From Octopus vulgaris (Eukaryota), in NCBI GenBank assembly GCA_951406725.2, contig OX597826.1, forward strand, positions 45,756,001 through 45,820,000: a DNA stretch of 64,000 nt. The letters are read 5' to 3'. The stretch's first letter is position 1. Each line of letters begins with the position of its first letter. Positions 26,922-46,255 of the stretch are shown in pieces. The translations under genes were made by a program, and so were the position numbers. A model generated the notes under the pieces. The model searched no databases, was not told the origin of the DNA, and saw only the letters and a list, made by a program, of their open reading frames with translations.

Positions 26922-27333
26922 TTAACCAAAGTTAGGTTTACAGCCACAGAGACCATTCCTTTGCAAAACAGGCATCCACCTGGGAGGACATTTCTTTGAA
27001 GCACAAATATTAGCCGTTTTTGAAGGTTTCGTAATCTTCGGGGTTGTTTTCTTTTCAGTGGTCGTCTCTATTGTCGTTGGCATCGTCGTCGTTTTAAGAC
27101 CTTCGGTGGATAGAATCTCCATCAGGAAGCTTCCTTTATCAAGATCATCGGTTGACTGGCCATTGGTAATAGCAGCATCAGTTTTAGCACGTTCGGTCTG
27201 AGGTTTACCATCACTGTTTATCCTGTTAGAATCAAGCTGGTTGCTCCCTGATTTTGAAATTTCGCTTTGCTTCACAAAACTGGCATTAGCAGATGCAAAG
27301 TTAGTTCCATCATATCCTCGGTAATGTTGGCAT
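26922..27333 (-). CDS. PVF gene terminal exon: Thr-rich stalk and C-terminal Cys module
   Basis: Acceptor caattttctctgcag|A TGC completes the CTC motif from the previous exon. Open frame to TAA, with a TTTMPTTIETTTEKKTT tract and CASKKCPP...CGC. Confidence 0.88.
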
Positions 27334-30300: not shown

Positions 30301-33300
30301 TAATAAAAAATGTTAGTTAATAAATAAAATTAATTAAACTAAATATAAACCCTTGTTCGGTGAAAAAAGGAGGGGAACTATAACTCTTCAGAGGGGGCAT
30401 TTTCTTTTCCTGTCTGGAACAATATATATATTTTTGTTGGTTTATAATAATAATTATTATTATTATCTGTTGCAGTTAAAGTAATAATTTTATTGGCGAA
30501 CCTTCGGTATAGGTACACATGTGACTTTGTTTACATTTCTGAAAATAACAGAAACCCTTTTCTCTCACCCCTAACCCTAACCACCCCATATATAAAAATA
30601 AACACTTTCTTGAAATGTATCCGGTACTTCCGGTACTTACACCGGTACTTATACCGAAGTTACGCCATTTTATTTTAATTTGGGCAGCTCAAAGCCAGCA
30701 ATTTTGAAGGGACGGGACTTAGTATCATCGACTTCAGAACTTGACCGGTACTTTACTTTATCGACTCTGGGAGTTGATAACGAAAAGTTGGTTTCGGCGT
30801 AATTTGAACTCAAAACATAAGGAGTCGGAACATTTCACTGCACTGCCCTAATCACAACTTTGCGATTACAACCAATATTTACTTCTCATTCGATCAATAA
30901 AGTACTTCGTCCACTGAATTACGTCATGTTTTAGGCGGCGAGCTGGCAGAAACGTTAGCTCGTTGGGCGAAATGCTTTGTGGTATTTCGTCCGCCGCTGC
31001 GTTCTGAGTTCAAATTCCGCCCAGGTCAATTTTGCCTTTCATCCTTTCGGGGTCGATAAATTAAGTACCAGTTACGCACTGGGGTCGATATAATCGACTT
31101 ACTCCGTTTGTCTGTTCTTGTTTGTCCTCTCTGTGTTTAGCCCCTTGTGGGTAATAAAGAAATAGGTATTTTGTCTGTCTTTATGTTCTGAGTTCAAATT
31201 CCGCCCAGGTCGACTTTGCCTTTCATCCTTTCGGGGTCGATAAATTAAGTACCAGTTGCGTACTGGAGTCGATCTAATCGACTGGTCCTCTTCCCCCAAA
31301 ATTTCGGGCCTTGTGCCTAGAGCAGAAACGAATTACGTCATATTTTACGTTTATCTTCTTTAATTTTTCACACGTTTTTTATTGCTGCTTGTGTTTTGTT
31401 TTTTTTTGTTTTTTGTCATGAATACGTACCCGCATACCTCGACTTACGTTTTATTTCAGAACATGTAGATGGATGAAATACTGCTAAAATCAAAATCAAA
31501 GTGAAATTCGATGACGGGCACGAGCACCATATGAGCGTGATCGTTGACAGAGCGGCTAACCGGCTTCCGTGCCAGTGGCACATAAAAGGCACCATTCGAG
31601 TGTGATCGTTACCAATGTCGCCTTACTGGCACTTGTGCCCCATGCTAGTAGGATCGTTGCCAGAGCGGCTAACTGGCTTCCGTACCGGTGGCATCTAGGA
31701 GGCACCATTCGAGCGGGATCCTTACCAGCATCGCTTTACTGGCACCTGCGCCGTTGGCATGTGTAAAAAGATTCGAGGTTGTTGCCAGTACTGCCTGACT
31801 GGCCCCCCGTGCCGGTGGCATGTAAAAGCACCCACTACACTCTCGGAGTGGTTGGCATTAGGAAGGGCATCCAGCTGTAGAAACTCTGCTAGATCAAGAC
31901 TGGAGCCTGGTGCAGCCATCTGGTTCGCCAGCCCCCAGTCAAACCGTCCAACCCATGCTAGCATGGAAAGCGGACGTTAAACAATGATGATGATGATGTG
32001 CTAACGATTCTGCCAACACACCACTTTCAATAATAATAGTAGTAATAATAATAATAATAATGAAATTTTACTTACGTGCAAAGAATTTTATTAAAGTACA
32101 GACCATGTCCACAAGCTTTTAATTTTGGACATGTGCAGCGACAAGTCTTCTTGTTCCAGGTCTTAGGATGTGTACATCTGGTATTTAAAGACGGTTTGCA
32201 GCGACAGGAGCAATCTGCAGAACTGTAGATATGTATTTTGTCATCGCAATCATCTTCTGTCACTTTGCAAACTTGTTCACAATCTGTATGTGTTTCAAGA
32301 TCAATACCAACTACTCTGTCCAAAGTCATGCTTGGAGCTCCGTAATAGTCATAATTTAACCGCACAACCTAAAGGATGGAGATTGAAGAAGTTTTAGGAA
32401 ACATGAATGGAGACGGAAAAGCAAACAAAAACCGAAAATAGCTCAGTGACGATAAAACATTACTCTTTTACTCTTCTTTTTACTTGTTTCAGTCATTTGA
32501 CCGCCTTTAGTTGAGCAAAGTGACCTAGTACTTTGCTCGATAGAATAAGTGACCTAGTACTAAGTAATTAGTGAAAGCATGGTGCACGTTACCAAGTCAG
32601 GGAAGTGAGAGTTGCTTATTCTTTTAAGATTTAAGCTGGCTATATCTGGCCCTAATATTCTTCACAATACTCTACGATATCATTCTAAAAATGAAAGAAA
32701 TAATCACATCAAAATTTTGAAGTTACAATATAAGGCATAATTGGTTCAAAACGATGTAAATAAATAAGCATTACATGTGATATGTGAAGGCATATAGCTC
32801 TATAGTTGGAGCATCAGACTCACAATCATGAGGTTGTGAGTTCGATTCCCAGCCCAGGCTGTGTGTTGTGTTCTTGAGCAAGACACTTTATTTCACGTTG
32901 CTCCAGTTCACTCAGCTGTAGAAATTAGTTATGATGTCACTGGTGCCAAGCTGAACTGGCCTTTGCCTTTCCCTTGGTTAACATCAGTGGAGAAGCGAGG
33001 TGGTATGCATGGGCAATTACTGATCTTCCATAAACAACTCTTGCCAGGACTTGTGCCTCAGAGGATAACTTTCTAAGTGCAATCCTCTGGTCATTAATAC
33101 CACCCCAACACTTTTTTTTTTACAAATGACAGAGTAATGTGAATGCTAAAGGATTAATATGGTATCTTCTAGGTGAATGAAATTACAACAGAAGAGAGAG
33201 AGAAGGGAAGAGAACTTACTTGTACTTTTTTAAAAACTTTTCCTTTAGCAGTGGGAACACAGGCAAGTGACTCGTGTTCAGCACAACCTCCACATCTTTT

Positions 33301-36300
33301 TACTCGGGTACATTTTGGCCAATAATACTTGTTGTATTCTGTTGGTTGAGGAATCTCTATTGTAGTCAACCGGGGTGAGCAAAAATCAGCATTGACAATT
33401 TCATTTGCTACAAAAAAAAGACAGAAAAAAATATAAATTTAGAAATAAGTTTACATTGTATTACTGTTATTGTTACTTCGTTGTTGTTTCCCATCGCTAT
33501 GCTGCCAGTAAAAATATTTGTTATTTGTGCATGTACTTTCATAAATTGTTCAAAGTGAAAGTATCTGAGCTGGCAGAAGCGTTAGCACGTCGGGCGAAAT
33601 GCCGAGCGGTATTTCGTCTGCCGTTACGTTGTGAATTCAATTTCCGCCGAGGTCGACTTTGCTTTTCATCCTTTCGGGGTCGATAAATTAAGTACCAGTT
33701 ACGCACTGGGGTCGATGTAATCGACTTAATCCCTTTGTTTGTCCTTGTTTGTCCCCTCTGTGTTTAGCTCCTTGTGGGTAGTAAAGAAATAAGTATCTTT
33801 TTGAAGTTTGTGTTGCATTGTCTATATGTTGATAGACACACAGTCACACAATAAATACTTGACAACCGATGCTGGTGTGTTTACGTCCCCCGTAACTTAG
33901 CGGTTCGGCAGGCAAAAGAGACCGATAGAAATAAGTACTAGGCTTACAAAGAATAAGTCCTGGGGTCGATTTGCTCGAGTAAAGGCGGTGCTCCAGTATG
34001 GCCACAGTCAAATGACTGAAACAAGTAAAAGAGTATTGCCATGACTTGGCAATTTATGCCTGTATCATTTCTGTTACTCTGCAGCGAAGCGCCCGCGACC
34101 CAGGTACATACGGTTAGGTGTAGAGCTGCAAGGCACGCAAGAATCTGATATTGTTCTTGATGTTGCTGTCTCTACATAATCTCAGGTCTACTGAAGCAGG
34201 TGAAGAAAACTGAATTGGCGGAAACTGTCTGGAAGCCTGCTCTGCGGACTTTCTTAGACGTGAGAGGCAAGTTTATCCTTCACCCACTTTAATTATTCAG
34301 CAGTCTAGGACTTTAGCAGAATTCACTCTGTGATAAGAATTGAGGCTACGCAACGAGAAATGACACATAACGATATCTAGTTATCCGCCATCCTTGAACC
34401 AAATCTATAAGCCAAAGATTGTGGATTATTATTAAATATTTTTGTAGCAGTAACACGTGCGTTTTGGTGACCACCTCCACCACCATCGTCATTATCATCA
34501 ATCAAAGAAACATTGAAAACGTGATCAACAAGTTTCCCTTCCGTGTATCTTCTCTGCAGATGTTTGATGATTCAGGCCTTTTTAAAAACTAAACTAAATA
34601 GTATTATACCAATTTCTTTACTACCCACAAGGGGCTAAACACAGAGAGGACAAACAAGGGCAGACAAACGGATTAAGACGATTATATTGACCCCAGTACG
34701 TAACTGGTACTTAATTTATCGATCCCGAAAGGATGAAAAGCAAAGTCGACCTCGGTGGAATTTGAACTTAGAACGTAACGGCAGACAAAATACCTATTTC
34801 TTTACTACCTACAAGGGGCTAAACACAGAGGGGACAAACAAAGACAGACAAACAGATTAAGTCGATTATATTGACCCCAATGCGTAACTGGTACTTATTT
34901 AATCGACCCCGAAAGGATGAGAGGCAAAGTCGACCTCGGCGGAATTTGAACTCACAACGTAGCGGCAGACGAAATACGGCTACGCATTTCGCCCGGCGTG
35001 CTAGCGTTTCTACCAGCTCCCCGCCTTATAAAATGAGGAGCTAACCTCAGGCTGAATCGAACTCACAAATCGAGGCTCGCAGGGCTCCTTGCGAATCAGA
35101 TTGGCCAAACGCTCACCTCTAAACTAAATAGTATTATACCATTAAGAAGGCGGCGAGCTGGCAGAAACGTTAGCACGCCGGGCAAAATGCTTAGCGGTAT
35201 TTCGTCTGCGTTACGTTCTGAGTTCGAATTCCGCCGAGGTCGACTTTGCCTTTCATCCTTTCGGGGTCGATAAATTAAGTACCAGTTACGCACTGGGGTC
35301 GATGTAATCGGCTTAATACCTATGTCTGTCCCCTCTGTGTTTAGCCCCTGTGGGTAATAAAGAAATAAGTATTATACCATTAATCTTTAGTTGTTTGGTT
35401 CTTTTTTAAGCTATCATGGTAGAGGTCATGTGGATACACCGCTTTCAATCAATCATTGCCAATCTGCTGACAACAGTAGAAAACTCAGCTTTGAAGATGC
35501 ATCGACAATTTTTTTGGTCTGCGGTGAAGGCAGCAGCTTTAGCAGTAAATTTATAAACTAAGTACTATGTTATTTACATCACATTCTTTCAGCCAATAAC
35601 ATTTTGTTTCCTACTTAAACCATTATGATTTACACATAGATCTTGGATCAAACTGAGACCACAAAAGTTTACTCAGAAACGTACAATAATTAATCTTAAT
35701 CCTTTTATACGTTTTTCCTTTTATAATAATTCTATTTATACCCAAAGTGGATTAAAAGGATATAAACTGATCCTTGTTCATAACTAATATACCTGTCCTC
35801 GTTAATTACCGATTCATTAATCTCTAATTCAGGGGAAAACAGCACGTTCGATTGTGAATCCTGTTACACTTATCAAGGAATGATTTAGGATAACAAGGGT
35901 CAGATATCGTGCAAAAATTCTGCTCGTTGATATTTTTCAGTTGCTTGTCTTTTTTTATAATTTACCGATGTGTTATAAAATATCTTCCCAAACACGAAAA
36001 AATATCATAAGGTGTGTTTAAAATATTTTTGAAAGTGTTATATAAGTTAGGAGGACAACATTGGGGTCTCGGAGCGAAGCCCTTTGTTTCCTCAGTTGTT
36101 CTAGTATTCATTTATCACTGATCCATGTAACACTTTCTCCTTTTTAGACTAAACACGCATGATAAACGAAGCCAGACGTACCGTAAATCCTCGTGTATAA
36201 TCCGCATTTTTCCCCCAAAATTTAAAGGTCAAAATCCCTAGTGCGTACTATATACGAGGTTAAAAATGAAAATTATTTTCTATGCAATGTCCGAGTCTAT

Positions 36301-39300
36301 TTGCTGTCCGGCAATGTTTATTCAGCCGCATTTTGTGATGTCGGGCGCCAAAATACCTTAAGCTAAACCTGAAAGCAATGAAGTCATAAAAGAATCATCC
36401 ATAACTTGCAATAAGCAACATTTATTAAACGTTATTACTGTTATTTCTTTATTTTCTGTAAACAAAATGCTCAAAAAAGCTATATGTTTGCATTATGTCA
36501 AATATACAATAATAATAAAGGACATTGCCTTTTACAGTTTTGCAAACCAAGAACGTTATATAGACCTCCTTGACTCAAGTTAGAGAAGGGGTGTGTATTA
36601 TACACAAGGTTTAGGTTTTTCAGAAGTACAGCTCCCTAAAAATCCCCTGCGTATTATACTCAAGGGCGGACTATACTCGAGGATTTACGGTACTTCTATT
36701 TTATCGACCTTAGATGGGTCAATAGTAGGAATTGAACTCAGAATATGAAGGTGCGTAAACTAAATATCAATGTTCTAACGACTCCGAAAATTCATCACCA
36801 ATGAAACATTGGAATAATTTCAAGTCTTAGAAATTGTTCTCAAAAATTAAATAAGAATACTTACTACTGGCATATTGGAAATCGCCATCTGAAAAACAGG
36901 GAAAAAGAGAAAAGAAAAGCATGAATATTTAATCAAAATAATTGCACTTGTGAAATTAAAATCTAGTTTTGTAAAAATCTAAAATTGTTCATTAATCATT
37001 ACAGTAATGTGAGAAATAATAATGTAGTGAACTTACTTTTCAAGCTAAACTGTCTGAACAGAGAGATAAATTGATAATGAAGTCTTGCCACAGTCAAGTG
37101 TAAGACAGAGGTTAAACAAATAAATATTTAAATATAGACATCAATACAAAGAAAGCGAAAAGGTTATATCGGATTAATAATAACGATCAAAAATACTCAC
37201 TCAAGTCTCGACTGTTAAGAAAAACAAACTAAGCAGATCGTCATCAGATTAAAAACATTTCGATCTTACTTTGATTGTTGATATGTTACAGAGCTCACTG
37301 TGATATGATACCCAGTAAGCTATCGTAGTGACATAAGGTAAACTCTCAAATACGAAAACAATACATTTATGTTTGCATTGCAAATGTGAAAGTTGTAAAC
37401 ATCACGACTTAAACTGTTATATTGGTAATACAAACCGCGATGTGTTGCAAGACGTAACAGAAATATGCTCCGCAACACAAAAACAAAAAATAATAAAAGG
37501 TTAGTTGAAAACCCATCTATGCTCTACAGAATAACTAAACAAAAGATTAAAGATCGAAGCAATATTCAGGACATAGTTCTAATGAATAAACACGTAACCA
37601 GTATACGCAGGACGCTACTTTGGAAGAATATTCTACACATCAAATACATAGAGAATAGATCCCCCCCGCCAACCCATTATTTTGTTATAGAACCTGCATA
37701 CGATTTTTGAATCAATTCGCGAAACCCTTATTTTAATCCATATTTTAATTAAATGAAGCAAAAACTTTATTAGAAGGGGAATTTATTCACAAAAACAAAA
37801 AAAATTAGTCGCAGAGGAAGATGTCAAGCGTGGTTGTGTAGTTAAAGCGTTCGCTCCGTAACCATGTGGCTTTGGGTTCAGTTCCACTGTGCGGCACCTT
37901 GGGCAAGAGTCTTCTATCATGGCCCCGGACCAACCAAAGACTTATGCGTAAATTTGGTAGACGGCAAATGGGAGAAGCCGTCATGTGTGTGTGTGTGTGT
38001 ATGTGTGACGGAAGCAAGTAAAAGACAGAAGAAAAGATATTAATAGGTTAAAATAATTTCTAAAACACAAATGCATTCACTCAAACACTATACATACATA
38101 CTTACGCATATATAAACATACGTATTTATATACACCCACATTTAAACGTACACATGCATACACACACACACATACAAGGACTCAAATATAAACATACAGT
38201 TTCTGTTATAGAGAGAGAGAGAGAGAGAAGAAAAAACAGGCTGATTATTACAAATAACCTTATTGGGGGCGTACTTAAAACAAATTTAGAAAATACAAGT
38301 ATTTCAGATTCTCAAATTGCAATTAAATACAAACTCCTGATTACTAAAAAATCTCCTTTTAGTAATTACACATTCTTGTATAGTTTCTACTCTCAAGCAC
38401 ACTTTGGCATGGAGTTTCTTTATTGGCATCAGTTTCTTGGAATACTTCTCTTTATGGATTGTATCATGTCATCGATAGTGAGTGGTATTCTTGAAAATAT
38501 ATTATTTTATAGCGTCCAAAACGAAATCCATTAGGATATATTATATTGTGTAACAGAATTTTCATTTTAAAGAATTTTTGTACTTGTTGTTTAATAAATG
38601 CTGTTTCCTATTTGCTTCTGTTTAGAAATCAAATGAAATGACTACTATTTCCTTTAAATTTTGCTTTTGTGACCTGGTCATCAATCTTTTGAAACCGACC
38701 TATTTTCCACTACATTTCGGACAGATTCAGCGCTGAGTTGCTGAAACAAGAATATCGTTATAGCAAATATTCTGCTCAATAGCACAGATCTGCTTGTCAG
38801 TTACTTGACCGTTACCACTTGAAGATGTCCTTTAGCGGCTGACGATATGTGCAACTCTCATCAATGGCAATGGGGTAGGGGAGCATCATAACCATGTGCT
38901 GAGAGTGATTCTTTGGGGTTTGAATAGATATAACAAGAGTAAAGTTTGAATGAAATATTAGCCATTTTTCATACTTTCTAGGAGAAAGCAAATAGAAAAT
39001 AACAGTTGCTACTCAAGGACAAAAATCGAGCTACACAATGAGTTTATAGTTCGGTTAATGTGATAACTATTCAACTGGTCATTATACTTCCTCCACTACC
39101 CACCAATGGAATAATGTTTTTCTTTTTCTTTTTTGTCAAGAAAATTACAAGGCGTTACACATTATAATGGGGGGAGAAGTCCCGTGTTGCTGAAAAAATT
39201 ATTTGTATTATACATGGTTAGGCTCGAAAATGCATGGTACTAAACAAAAATGCTACTTCACAGCATTTTGGGCGAGTATCTTCTATTTTAACGTCGTTGT

Positions 39301-42300: not shown

Positions 42301-44887
42301 GAGTGAGTTTTATCCTGGAATGGGTGGCTTATCTGGTATTCCTTGAAGAAATGTGTCCAGACTCCGTTTAAAGGTGATGGGATCCTTTTCCTCTTTAATC
42401 AGTTTTGGGATAATGTTAAACAGGGCAGGGCTTGTTGAGGAAAAGAAATTATATCACAGTGTACCTATATGTTGTGACCCTGAATTGGGCAGGGGACATA
42501 TGGCCAGTGGTCCAAGCCTTGGATGAACCTTGAAACTAATACTCAGGTCATTTGGGAAATGCTGGCGTTATATTTTCCACTTCGTACAAATGATGTACCG
42601 CTCGCGGCGGTACTGGTGAGAGTAGAGTTACAAGGCTTTAAAGCTGTCCCAGTAATCGAGATCAGTCATGCCTTCAATTTGTTTAGTGAGTGCCCTCTGG
42701 GGTGATTCAATCCTCGAGATGTTTTGTTTTGTATGGGGAGACCACAAGGGGCAGCAGTATTCAAGGTGTGGCCGTACAAAGGAGGAGAAAAGTGGAATGA
42801 TGACACCTTGTTCTCTGGACCGGAAGGTTCTTAAGATCCAGGAGCTCATCCTACGAGCTATATCAAGCTCATTGTTGATGTGGGTACTCCAACTGTTATC
42901 AACAATTTCACCCATGTCTCTGATATTACTAGATGCCGTGAGCGGTTCCCCAGAAGGAAGAGAGTATGGCTATTTTAGTATAGACTTCCTTCCAAAATGC
43001 ATCAGTTCAAATTTTCCCTAGTTCAGTTGCATTTTGTTTTGTCTGCCCATTGACTCACTGCATATAGATTAGCTTGGAGTTAAGTCCGGTCTTCTTCATT
43101 GATAATTTGCTGGAGCTTAGTGTCATCAGCAAATATTTTCACTTTGCAGTGATTTACGACGCTGGAAAGGTCATTTATGTAAATTATAAAGAGGAGCGGG
43201 CCCAAGACAGTCCCCTGAGGGACACCACTGGTGACTTTTGTTGGGATTGAGTGGACTTCATCGAGCACAACTTCTTGTGTTCTATTCGCCAGGAAATACT
43301 TAATCCAGTGTAGAAGTTTTCCACGGATTCCAACATTTGCTAATTTTGAGAGTAAGATATTATGGTCAACCCTGTCGAACGCTTTACTGAAGTCATGATA
43401 TATGACATCAGAGTTTGAACCTGTTCCCAAGGCTTTAAGTATATCTTCAATGTGGTGTAAGAGCTGTCTTAGACAGTCCCTGCCACAGTGAAAGCCATGC
43501 TGATTTGCATTTAGGAGTTTGTGGGTCTCAAGGAAGTCAGCTATCCTTGATCTTACAAACCTTTCAAACACTAATGATGTGGGAGGTGAGCAGATTGGCG
43601 GTAGTTGACTGCGATTGGGCTGTTTCCCAATTTGAAAACCGGGATGAGACGGGCGGTAGTGACTGCGAGGGATCTGTTTCCCAATTTGAAAACCGGGATG
43701 ACAGACTGGGATAGGAGCTGTTTCGGTATATAACCTGAGTCTAAAGAATTTCTCCAGAGGTTGGTCAGAGGGACTGGAAGTTGGTGTTTACATTCCTTCA
43801 GGAGACTAGCTGGGAATCTATCAGGGCCTACAGTAGAATATGTCCGAGATTTTATGTTGGAAATCAACTTCGTTCGCTTCTGTTACGTCAATATCTGTGG
43901 GATCACTAAAGACAGAGCAGTATTGTTTCTGCAGTATTTCTGCCATTTCCATAGCATCGTGTTGAGGAATGCCGTAATCATCAATCAATGGCCCAATGGG
44001 TGAGACTGCGGTTCTATACTTATTTGCATAAGCGTAGAACACTTTTGGGTTCTGTTTGATGTTTTTGATTACCCACTGTTCCTCCGCAGCTCTTAATTTT
44101 CAATGGAGGTTTTCATGTCGGTCTGCAGATGAAGTTTTTCCAACTCCAGCCTTTTCATTGTTGTTGAATGTGGTTGTTGTATGTAGGAGTATTTTAATTG
44201 ATTGGTTTTTTAAATTGACTCTTTTGATGCGCCTGATGAGTGGTTTTTTTTTCTTTTTAGGTAGCCGGTTTCTGTTTGTGTTAGTGGATTTCGTAGGAGC
44301 GTGTTTTGAGCATGTACAGGTGACAATGTTCTCAAAGTGTTGCCATGCGGTCTTAATATGAGTGGAACTGAGAGTGAAAGACCAGTCGATGAAGGACAGA
44401 TTCTTTCTAATTGCTCCCCAGTCCGCTTTGTGGGAATTTATGTTGTCAAATGAGTGCCGTGGAGTAGGACTGGCTGGTTTGGTTTTGATATGCCGGGAAT
44501 TAAAATTGCTGAGTATCATGTCGTGGTCTGAGAGGAGAGTTTTTTTTCAACTGAAATACTGTGAACGGAACTAGAGTGGGTTGTTAATATTAGATCCAAG
44601 ATCATTTTATTCTGTCTTGTTAGTTCAAGCACTAGCTGAGTCAGGAAGAATTTATCCATTAGATTAAAGAGTAATTCGCTGGCAGTATGTTAATGGTACT
44701 TTTATTCTCGAGCCCTTTGGGATGGAATATTATTGTCTGCTACGTTTAAATCAAAGCCAAACTTTGCAAGAGGAATTTGGTAAAAATACTGAGCAGATTC
44801 TTTCTTTCTTTCTTTCTTTCTCTCTTTCTTTGTTTCTCTCTCTTTCTTTCTTTCTTTCTCTCTTTCTTTCTTTTTTCTTTCCTTCTT

Positions 44888-44932
<45 letters not shown>

Positions 44933-46255
44933 CCCTCTCTCTCTCACTTAAGTATCAAGGGATTAATAATCATTATTATGTTAACTTCTTGAGCACGATT
45001 TCTAGTCTTGCAATTTTATCACCGGCAACTATTGGAACTTTATATTCGCTTGTTCGCTGCATCTTTCAGCAAAAATATATAATGTTCCCATTTTTATCAT
45101 TACGGATTCGCACGCAAACAAACAACGACATACAAGCATCGCGACAAATATACTCTTCAGGTTGAACAATATTTGTGAGAGGGACTTGGTAAACATACTG
45201 AACAGATGCTATGTCTCGCGTGTACACACACACACATATATCACACGTAGATACACTTCTGTTTGCACATATTCACAAACACATCTATACATATACGCAT
45301 TCACTGATAAATGCATACACACTCACACGCACACATTTATACACACATACAAAAATGTACAGAGATATAGCTGGGACCTTTTCGGTTTGAACGGCAGTTT
45401 TTCTAGCGGTGTTATATGAAATTGTCACCCATAATTATGACCCTAGTATCGATCTATTGCATTTCAATCTGTTTTAGGGTTAGGATTAGAGTTAGGGTTA
45501 GGGGTGGGGGGAAGGGTATCTTTTTTTCTTCAGAAATCTAAATAAACCCAACCTGTTTCTTAAACGAGGGACATATTCAAACGACACAGAATGTTTTCAC
45601 ATCAATAGACGTCATTGATTGGTTAAAATTGCAGAAATTGAAGAAAAAAAACAACAAATATCTTACAAACTATAGAATTTTCTCTATAATGCCAAGAGAA
45701 AAAGATGTTTCATAAACACATTCTTCCAGTATATGAAGTTTAAAAGTGTTTAGTTACGTGGAAATTATTTTAAAAAACTGCCGTTCAAACCGAAAAGATC
45801 CTATAGCTGAATACACATACACGCAATACTACTATATATACACAGATGCATACAGACGTGTGTGCGCGTTCAGTTCCATGTCTGTGCTTTTGTCAGTCAA
45901 GAAACCATTGTTAATAGTGCCCCATTATTTTCCGTAACATAAGCAGTTCCACACATGAATCAATAAAATAAGTTTCACACTAAAATAAATAAAAAGATCG
46001 ATACGATTAATTAAAATCCCATCCAAGTTCAGTCCGGTGTCTCAAAATGGTGATAACCCTAAGACTGAAACTAGGCTAAGAATCAACGAATATACGTATA
46101 TACAAGCATATTACAGAGAGGTGGTTGACTTTAGTTGTCCGTTGACGTAAACATGAGGAACATAAAGAGTCGAACTTACCGTTTACATGTAAAAACTCCT
46201 GCAAGTCTTTCAGTGATGTCAATTTGTTTACTTTTTGTCGTTCCCTTTCTGGAAT
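26922..46255 (-). CDS. PDGF/VEGF-related growth factor (PVF / VEGF-like), spliced gene, 5'-incomplete model: join(46180-46255, 36865-36888, 33220-33407, 32076-32368, 26922-27333) on the minus strand
   Basis: All four junctions are GT-AG with matching phases (1,1,0,2) and give one open frame: IPERERQKVNKLTSLKDLQEFLHVN-DGDFQYAS-TNEIVNADFCSPRLTTIEIPQPTEYNKYYWPKCTRVKRCGGCAEHESLACVPTAKGKVFKKVQ-VVRLNYD...LETHTDCEQVCK...CSCRC...CRCTC...LCT-CQHYRG...NGLCGCKPNFG*. WPKCTRVKRCGGC...LACVPT matches the PDGF/VEGF signature PxCxxxxRCxGC. Confidence 0.9.
30495..30666. mobile_element. 172-bp MITE with GG..CC termini and 8-bp TSD (Merlin-type)
   Basis: TIRs ggcgaaccttcggtataggtac / gtacttataccgaagttacgcc. TSD ATTTTATT at 30487-30494 and 30667-30674. 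Internal ccctaaccctaacc. Confidence 0.75.
32076..32368 (-). CDS. PVF gene exon, C-terminal half of PDGF/VEGF domain plus CXCXC cysteine-rich repeats
   Basis: Acceptor ccatcctttag|GTT and donor TGCAC|gtaagt. Encodes HTDCEQVC...CSCRC...WNKKTCRCTC...C...FNKILC, resembling the VEGF-C/D silk-like (Balbiani ring 3 type) repeats. Confidence 0.92.
33220..33407 (-). CDS. PVF gene exon, N-terminal half of PDGF/VEGF domain
   Basis: Acceptor ctttttttgtag|CA and donor CAA|gtaagt. Encodes FCSPRLTTIEIP...WPKCTRVKRCGGCAEHESLACVPT. Confidence 0.93.
34612..35118 (-). mobile_element. composite retroposon: extra tRNA-like unit plus SINE A dimer, 23-bp TSD
   Basis: ctaaactaaatagtattatacca at 34589-34611 and 35119-35141 brackets both parts. 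Confidence 0.7.
35146..35367 (+). mobile_element. SINE family A monomer, 16-bp TSD
   Basis: agtattataccattaa lies on both sides. Confidence 0.85.
36181..36690. mobile_element. 510-bp Tc1/mariner-pogo-type MITE with TA TSD
   Basis: TA|CCGTAAATCCTCGTGTATAATCCGC ... GCGGACTATACTCGAGGATTTACGG|TA. Confidence 0.85.
36865..36888 (-). CDS. PVF gene 24-nt microexon ([D]GDFQYAS[T])
   Basis: Long pyrimidine tract ending cctgtttttcag, then ATGGCGATTTCCAATATGCCAGTA|gtaagt. Phase 1-1, keeps the frame into exon 33220-33407. Confidence 0.7.
37037..37053 (-). CDS. candidate 17-nt microexon of the PVF gene
   Basis: tttatctctctgttcag|ACAGTTTAGCTTGAAAA|gtaagt. With the 11-nt and 24-nt exons it reads SRLEQFSLKNGDFQYAST without a stop. 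Confidence 0.4.
37201..37211 (-). CDS. candidate 11-nt microexon of the PVF gene
   Basis: gtttgtttttcttaacag|TCGAGACTTGA|gtgagt. Strong acceptor and donor 11 nt apart. Confidence 0.4.
38600..38985. repeat. unclassified ~380-bp interspersed repeat; inverted second copy at ~57860-58230
   Basis: Shared segments such as gaaaccgacctattttcca...acagattcag...tagcaaatattctgctca match the reverse complement of the 58-kb region. Confidence 0.7.
39385..39718. repeat. foldback inverted repeat, ~135-bp arms
   Basis: tcgtttcaataacagatggg...aatataaacaatgatta...aatttcat versus atgaaatt...taatcattgtttatatt...cccatctgttattgaaacga. Confidence 0.75.
39872..41323 (-). mobile_element. decayed mariner DNA transposon (transposase pseudogene)
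   Basis: TIRs ggttggtcaaaaagatcgttc / gaacgaacttgttgaccaacc. Frameshifted peptides LHQLGYISKLNVWFPHQL (WVPHEL motif), YELLPANRTISSNAYFEQLDQL and WDVLLHLPYLPDLVPSDFH (YSPDLAPSD motif). Confidence 0.88.
39961..40224 (-). mobile_element. tRNA-derived SINE family C nested in the mariner, 12-bp TSD
   Basis: caatcaatgata at 39949-39960 and 40225-40236. tRNA-like head plus a CORE-like gttgtgttcttgagcaaaacactt segment. Confidence 0.85.
42229..44575 (-). mobile_element. 5'-truncated CR1-clade LINE with frameshifted ORF2 (reverse transcriptase)
   Basis: QHGF..GRDCL, DFSKAFDRVDH, VTSGVPQGTVLGPLLFIIYINDL, KIFADDTKL and RPHLEYCCPLWSPH are split across ORFs 44100-44519, 43821-44042, 43571-43867, 43080-43571 and 42628-42915. 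Internal ~54-bp tandem duplication at 43597-43700. Confidence 0.92.
45374..45801. mobile_element. 428-bp MITE with GG..CC termini and 8-bp TSD TATAGCTG (Merlin-type)
   Basis: TIRs ggaccttttcggtttgaacggcagttttt / aaaaactgccgttcaaaccgaaaagatcc. TSD at 45366-45373 and 45802-45809. Internal ttagggttagg. Confidence 0.85.
46180..46255 (-). CDS. PVF gene exon, PDGF-propeptide-like segment (IPERERQKVNKLTSLKDLQEFLHVN)
   Basis: Acceptor ttctattgcag|ATT and donor AACG|gtaagt. The 76-nt exon runs phase 0 to 1. The peptide resembles the vertebrate PDGF-A propeptide (IP...S..DLQ..L). Confidence 0.75.

Follow-up and report, generated by a model that had tools for sequence, protein, structure and literature searches.

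The minus strand of the analysed window, a stretch of 64,000 nucleotides of Octopus vulgaris DNA, carries the gene of a real PDGF/VEGF factor (PVF) whose cystine knot is open, and this open-knot PVF is part of a wider molluscan and protostome pattern and no cephalopod invention. The gene codes for a 352-residue PDGF/VEGF factor matching the public O. vulgaris protein P0003: translation of the five exons located in the window yielded residues 23-352 of P0003 with zero differences. The NCBI label of P0003, "vascular endothelial growth factor D", a database name shared with P0002, is taken here to be the automatic annotation of the source, and the trees described below hold no vertebrate rows.

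Exon 1 encodes the signal peptide (residues 1-22) and is located at L006:9723, about 19.7 kb past the window end. The other exons, on the minus strand, are exon 2 (46180..46255; residues 23-47, N-terminal pro-region), the 24-nt micro-exon 3 (36865..36888), exon 4 (33220..33407) with the first part of the PDGF/VEGF domain and Cys I-IV and VI (PF00341, E 1.4e-12, and RNA contigs), exon 5 (32076..32368) with the domain end and Cys VII followed by three CXCXC/BR3P-type repeats (PF03128), and exon 6 (26922..27333) with a Thr/Ser-rich linker of low confidence, a C-terminal four-cysteine module and the stop codon. The PDGF/VEGF domain is interrupted by a phase-0 GT..AG intron of 851 nt (32369..33219, minus strand), and the loose end of an RNA contig at 33407 reads micro-exon 3 joined to exon 2. 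The resulting architecture is of the secreted type, with a hydrophobic N-terminus, the PDGF/VEGF domain, three CXCXC repeats, the Thr/Ser-rich linker and the four-cysteine tail. The PF00341 profile matched residues 65-149 (E 2.5e-14; 53.8 bits for a cut-off of 27) and PF03128, the profile of BR3P/CXCXC repeats C-terminal to the domain, gave 20.7 bits versus a cut-off of 15. The introns are rich in repeats: high-copy interspersed repeats with very high read depth occur for example at window positions 31900-32000, 32440-32530 and 32750-33080, long simple repeats typical of the O. vulgaris genome are present in many introns too, and a LINE-type reverse transcriptase-like fragment, judged by eye from its translation, lies in intron 2 (43080-43787, minus strand).

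The peptide encoded by exon 4 (33407-33220) contains ...PKCTRVKRCGGC-A-EHESLACVP, the exon end reading ...RCGGC-A-EHESLACVP...KKVQ, and that of exon 5 (32368-32076) includes ...HTDCE-Q-VCK. The junction of the two exons (33220-32368, CT..AC on the plus strand) was present in contigs from all four RNA-type runs, which come from four studies, and 0 other letters were detected across exons 4 and 5 in these contigs. "RNA" is here a guessed label of the run type and it is the spliced contigs themselves that demonstrate RNA. In the DNA run X4, 0 other letters were observed over 33129-33383 and no change was listed at 32273-32275. Both non-cysteine codons are real and transcribed. The first-pass annotation had proposed that Ala (GCT) and Gln (CAA) replace knot cysteines, and this replacement is present in the genome, in the RNA contigs of the four studies and in the public protein; as it had also claimed, the changes are multi-nucleotide ones, GCT being 2 bases and CAA 3 bases away from the nearest Cys codon. 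No Cys was found at these codons in the RNA contigs, in run X4 or in two Octopus species.

An assembly error or a decaying pseudogene could in principle account for the two codons, an explanation that we reject and to which practically no probability can be attached. Besides the presence of both codons in RNA contigs from four studies, the reading frame is open through all exons, and over 330 residues the orthologs of two other Octopus species show 2 and 13 differences from the octopus protein, none of them at a cysteine. One contig of run X19, labelled as an insect metagenome, spans both exons when placed on 32070-33420. It shows 16 differences in about 480 bases, a divergence indicating the transcript of a related species; none of the 11 listed differences falls at the Ala98 or Gln150 codons and 7 of the 11 are synonymous, which further disfavours a decaying gene. 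The loss is, as previously suggested, a tolerated one, in an intact gene with an open frame, splicing and both inter-chain cysteines.

In VEGF-A, C26 and C68 form one pair of the knot. Two bonds make up the ring, among them the bond named 3-6, and without this bond there is no knot. In the octopus protein, Ala98 (GCT, 33280..33282, minus strand) stands at the place of Cys V (VEGF-A C61) and Gln150 (CAA, 32273..32275, minus strand) at the place of Cys VIII (VEGF-A C104). The six other cysteines are kept, in agreement with the first reading: Cys I is C65 (33381-33379), Cys II is C88 (33312-33310), Cys III is C94 (33294-33292), Cys IV is C97 (33285-33283), Cys VI is C105 (33261-33259) and Cys VII is C148 (32281-32279), all on the minus strand, with C88 and C97 at the inter-chain positions. 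The eight-cysteine PDGF/VEGF signature is thus present at six of its eight positions, V and VIII being absent, and the core allows only two intrachain pairs, in place of the three of a strict cystine knot, where a ring of two bonds is threaded by the third.

The assignment of the lost residues to C61 and C104 was supported by two alignments. HMMER aligned the RCGGCA of the octopus protein to the RCGGCA of 1MKK, the VEGF-A C61A/C104A variant. In the structural alignment, the aligned ranges end at residues 152/153/154/155 of the model, which correspond to 106/107/108/109 of VEGF-A. This constant offset of 46, taken from the ends of the alignment range only, matches Q150 to C104 and puts C152 at position 106, which lies outside the knot. 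The pairing on which the earlier assignment was based fits the titles that 1MKG (C57A, C102A) and 1MJV (C51A, C60A) bear in the PDB.

Cys152 (TGC, 32267..32269, minus strand), the "VC" cysteine and first of the repeat region, lies two residues past the lost cysteine and might take the place of Cys VIII in a re-paired knot where a knot-like bond survives. This rearrangement is very improbable and was rejected: the would-be partner Cys V is missing, C152 is aligned to VEGF-A 106, and a cysteine equivalent to C152 (the "+2" cysteine) was found in 149 of the 150 homolog rows, including all 114 rows with both knot cysteines, so that it cannot be seen as a replacement for the lost Cys VIII. Moreover, the repeat region has an even number of cysteines, 12 counting C152 and including C217 from exon 6. 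Judged from these alignments and from the model, C152 is assigned to the CXCXC repeats and not to the knot.

The AlphaFold2 model, obtained with a 33-row alignment, displayed a block pLDDT of 90-97 over residues 61-200; as AlphaFold was trained on many knotted VEGFs, these values do not measure how well the open form folds. With this predicted model as query, the top rows of Foldseek and VIA were PDGF/VEGF chains (Z 9-10.6, rmsd about 2-3 A) and the next families reached Z 7.5 or lower. A VEGF fold with an open knot ring is the prediction for the octopus protein. It shares with the PDGF/VEGF family, and with the VEGF-C/D-type invertebrate PVFs, the PF00341 domain, a signal-peptide-like N-terminus, six of the eight cysteines, the CXCXC repeats and the predicted fold, and is unlike the family in its lack of Cys V and VIII and its incomplete knot. 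The resemblance to the engineered VEGF-A C61A/C104A is close in that the same two cysteines are gone and RCGGCA is read in both; the octopus protein is, in contrast, natural, about 28% identical, has Gln at position VIII and carries CXCXC repeats after the domain. The model compared with 1MKK at Z 9.2 and with wild-type VEGF-A at Z about 10, values that are tied within the margin of the tool.

The spread of the cysteine losses was read from the best 150 clusters of the 544 proteins collected by a full HMMER search (E up to 0.001). Cys V and Cys VIII were both absent in 20 clusters, octopus included, Cys VIII alone in 15 and Cys V alone in 0; both were kept in 114 clusters, 4 of which are without the N-terminal part, and the last one, a fragment, has Ser at V. 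Since the query itself is devoid of both cysteines and the reading covered the best 150 of the 544 hits, the proportion of 20/150 overstates the frequency of the double loss and shows its presence. Cys II, III, IV and VI were found in 150/150 of these clusters, and Cys I and VII wherever the row extends. Among the same clusters Cys V is replaced by T, S, A, P, G or V and Cys VIII by 10 residue types.

Twenty clusters were looked up, 19 picked for the absence of Cys VIII and one canonical, and 13 of them had names. Besides octopus, the double loss (residues given as V/VIII) was found in the molluscs Liolophura (chiton; G/I), Saccostrea and Pinctada (oysters; A/P and S/P), Mytilus (mussel; T/Q) and Babylonia (whelk; T/L), and outside molluscs in Watersipora (bryozoan; P/Q), Tachypleus (horseshoe crab; A/F) and Nilaparvata (planthopper; S/V). 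The claim that the loss is specific to cephalopods is contradicted by the five other molluscan proteins, and the six-cysteine pattern in molluscan PVFs, which had been named in advance as the observation that would speak against it, is the one observed here. The expected Ala/Gln pair was recovered in part: O. bimaculoides has A/Q, O. sinensis S/Q, and the sister protein P0005, 43% identical and probably from another cephalopod, S/E. The homolog searches yielded no ortholog under the name of a squid, cuttlefish or nautilus. Word-indexed searches with exon 4 and P0003 returned the Octopus cluster only, which reflects their limit of sensitivity because HMMER finds 544 proteins, and the clusters retrieved from the ESM Atlas were all generic PDGF/CXCXC ones, under 0.9.

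Loss of Cys VIII alone was found in Solemya, Sinanodonta, Patella, Bradybaena and Elysia. Such seven-cysteine PVFs (P0007, P0014, P0039, P0061, P0077 and ten more) retain a Cys V that is apparently unpaired, and in the bivalve and gastropod ones this residue may be a free thiol or form an extra inter-chain bond. In alignment A1, 12 of 14 seven-cysteine rows have an odd cysteine total from Cys I on, and the remaining two have a C-terminus that is truncated or divergent.

The four-cysteine module that follows the Thr-rich linker (window 26925-27030) has no Pfam match. A profile of the module built without the octopus rows gave 32 bits for octopus, the highest score of the test rows, and up to 23 bits in other rows, non-mollusc ones among them, so that the module alone is not diagnostic. 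Molluscan and bryozoan PVFs share it. The octopus gene fits what we define as the molluscan open-knot PVF group by the absence of Cys VIII, the Thr-rich linker and the four-cysteine module.

Trees were built with sites V and VIII masked. In a quick tree of 150 rows, octopus fell inside a 31-row branch (SH-aLRT 86), 30 rows of which are without Cys VIII. In two careful trees of 53 rows, octopus and chiton stood apart from the bivalves and gastropods, and the joint group was not rejected (p-AU 0.43 and 0.37); the placement of octopus with the bivalve/gastropod group is unstable. In the 53-row set, a single origin was rejected for all 20 double-loss rows (p-AU 1.5e-9) as well as for all 35 rows without Cys VIII (8e-6). 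Over the 30 rows of the mollusc branch, 8 state changes were counted for Cys V and 1 for Cys VIII. The lack of any loss of V alone, together with the repeated changes of V, suggests that Cys VIII goes first and that the orphan Cys V follows several times. Read in this way, the pattern includes seven-cysteine intermediates that are long-lived. The loss of Cys VIII in octopus may be an early molluscan inheritance or a parallel loss. P0145, which has all eight cysteines, is nested among gastropod rows without Cys VIII, so either the bond was regained or the losses were repeated around it.

These data bear on the proposal of the first-pass annotation that both cysteines were lost together, in a coordinated innovation of cephalopods bringing a new stability or specificity. 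The three named Octopus species and P0005 are all without both cysteines, and octopus and P0005 are separated from bivalves and gastropods in the two careful trees, an independent loss thus being possible. This proposal is nevertheless improbable, for the six-cysteine core recurs from chiton, oysters, mussel and whelk to bryozoan, horseshoe crab and planthopper, the residue replacing Cys V varies inside Octopus (Ala or Ser), and all fifteen seven-cysteine intermediates are without VIII and none without V only, which points to a loss in two steps. The loss of the bond looks stepwise and recurrent, not coordinated.

The genome was searched with PF00341 and, among the best candidates scored, at least two matches exceeded the cut-off, the open-knot gene and a paralog on C13 at 74.7 Mb; further PVF paralogs are possible. 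A third match (L004), below the cut-off, is apparently a chance match. In the paralog (L003:1439-2337; G000:C13, about 74.736 Mb) the eight cysteines are all present and an intron occupies the place matching the 851-nt intron of the open-knot gene, which upholds the paralog status announced for the latter. Its RC...GCC loop is longer by three inserted residues, the "+2" cysteine is absent, and about 2 kb downstream lies a CXCXC exon. The same genome encodes a VEGFR-type kinase, P0176, whose Ig domain 2 exon is located at L021:1435-1704 (G000:C13, about 64.975 Mb). C13 carries the open-knot gene, the paralog and the receptor, at 45.8, 74.7 and 65.0 Mb respectively.

On the whole of the evidence, the gene is intact and spliced and encodes a PVF devoid of bond 3-6 with a predicted VEGF fold, and we consider it probable that this protein is secreted as a disulfide-linked dimer that activates the octopus VEGFR, the bond having been lost in two steps. 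In the mechanism that we propose, Cys VIII would have disappeared at the outset; Cys V, left without its partner, would have been replaced by a small residue afterwards, on repeated occasions. The beta-hairpins and the dimer would continue to be held together by bonds I-VI and III-VII and by the two inter-chain bonds, with C88 and C97 presumably mediating dimerisation. The CXCXC repeats are directly fused to the final strand and may anchor the chain in place of Cys VIII. Such a ligand without a topological knot would probably tolerate heat less well and signal ordinarily through its receptor, with a likely role in the migration or proliferation of blood cells or vessel cells. For this activation the probable oyster ortholog described below gives indirect support.

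According to a second-hand account in the part of PMC2759523 available, the C61A/C104A and C57A/C102A variants of VEGF-A have wild-type-like structures and keep their thermodynamic stability but lose in folding capacity. In molluscs, the accessible text of PMC12468279 reports that oyster CgVEGF, assayed as an E. coli GST fusion, binds CgVEGFR with a KD of 879 nM, raises newborn hemocytes in a receptor-dependent manner and drives hemocyte migration; the word "cysteine" has 0 occurrences in that text. Among 179 proteins, the best match of the peptides translated from the CgVEGF qPCR primers (Table S1, PMC12468279) was the double-loss Saccostrea P0033 with a score of 55, the next cluster being a Pinctada protein of the same group with 44. 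CgVEGF, the sole molluscan PVF for which functional data were found, is on these grounds probably an ortholog of the open-knot kind, a likeness read from two 6-residue translations of its primers.

The octopus protein could also be a divergent modulator activating the receptor weakly or not at all, for example a decoy, a heterodimer partner or a matrix-tethered factor, with the eight-cysteine paralog as the true VEGFR agonist. That paralog resides on the same chromosome, the long cysteine-rich repeats and the Thr-rich linker could tether the protein, and the oyster affinity, 879 nM in the text available, is weak; against this, the probable oyster ortholog gave VEGFR-dependent effects on hemocytes in vivo, as far as the same source (PMC12468279) reports, and the remaining domain signature is strictly conserved. 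We regard a modulator role as unlikely, if a little less so than the coordinated cephalopod innovation, and retain the open-knot PVF as a probable ordinary ligand. A bolder extension of this reading is doubtful, yet deserves more credit than either of those two alternatives: the main VEGFR ligand of molluscs, also the one that serves the closed circulation of cephalopods, would be knot-less, the order VIII then V would be fixed, the orphan Cys V of Solemya, Sinanodonta, Patella, Bradybaena and Elysia would have a function, be it in an additional bond between the chains or as a thiol sensitive to redox state, and octopus would represent the end state. If true, the octopus protein would be the natural counterpart of VEGF-A C61A/C104A, and bond 3-6 the sole knot bond that a PVF can drop.

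No description of the loss of a knot pair in PVFs was found in the literature searched, subscription papers and supplement figures lying outside its scope. In the available part of PMC10328876, the inter-chain cysteines are the only ones said to be frequently absent from protostome and invertebrate PVFs; compared with the pattern of that survey, as far as it is given there, octopus keeps both inter-chain cysteines and loses a knot pair. A text search of its supplements (Octopus, two octopus accessions, Mytilus, Crassostrea) disclosed no knot-pair loss, which an alignment figure could show. VEGF is mentioned as known in cephalopods, with nothing further stated, in the accessible portion of PMC5430041. 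In another family, according to the part of PMC11087794 available, there are IL-17 types from which a single knot bond has disappeared, in type T1C the 3/6 disulfide. Like the octopus PVF, IL-17 T1C as described there is a natural case of 3/6 loss in a cystine-knot growth factor, unlike it in belonging to another family with another receptor class; we infer the equivalence of the IL-17 3/6 bond with VEGF-A C61-C104 from standard knot numbering.

With engineered VEGF-A and IL-17, precedents for an open knot exist, and the octopus gene is ordinary within its group. The cystine knot is seen as the hallmark of the PDGF/VEGF family, and the six- and seven-cysteine forms show that one knot bond is repeatedly expendable. 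They provide a natural series, across molluscs and other protostomes, for probing how the knot contributes to folding, receptor activation and stability to heat. In cephalopod biology, the octopus VEGFR now has two candidate ligands, of which the open-knot PVF is one.
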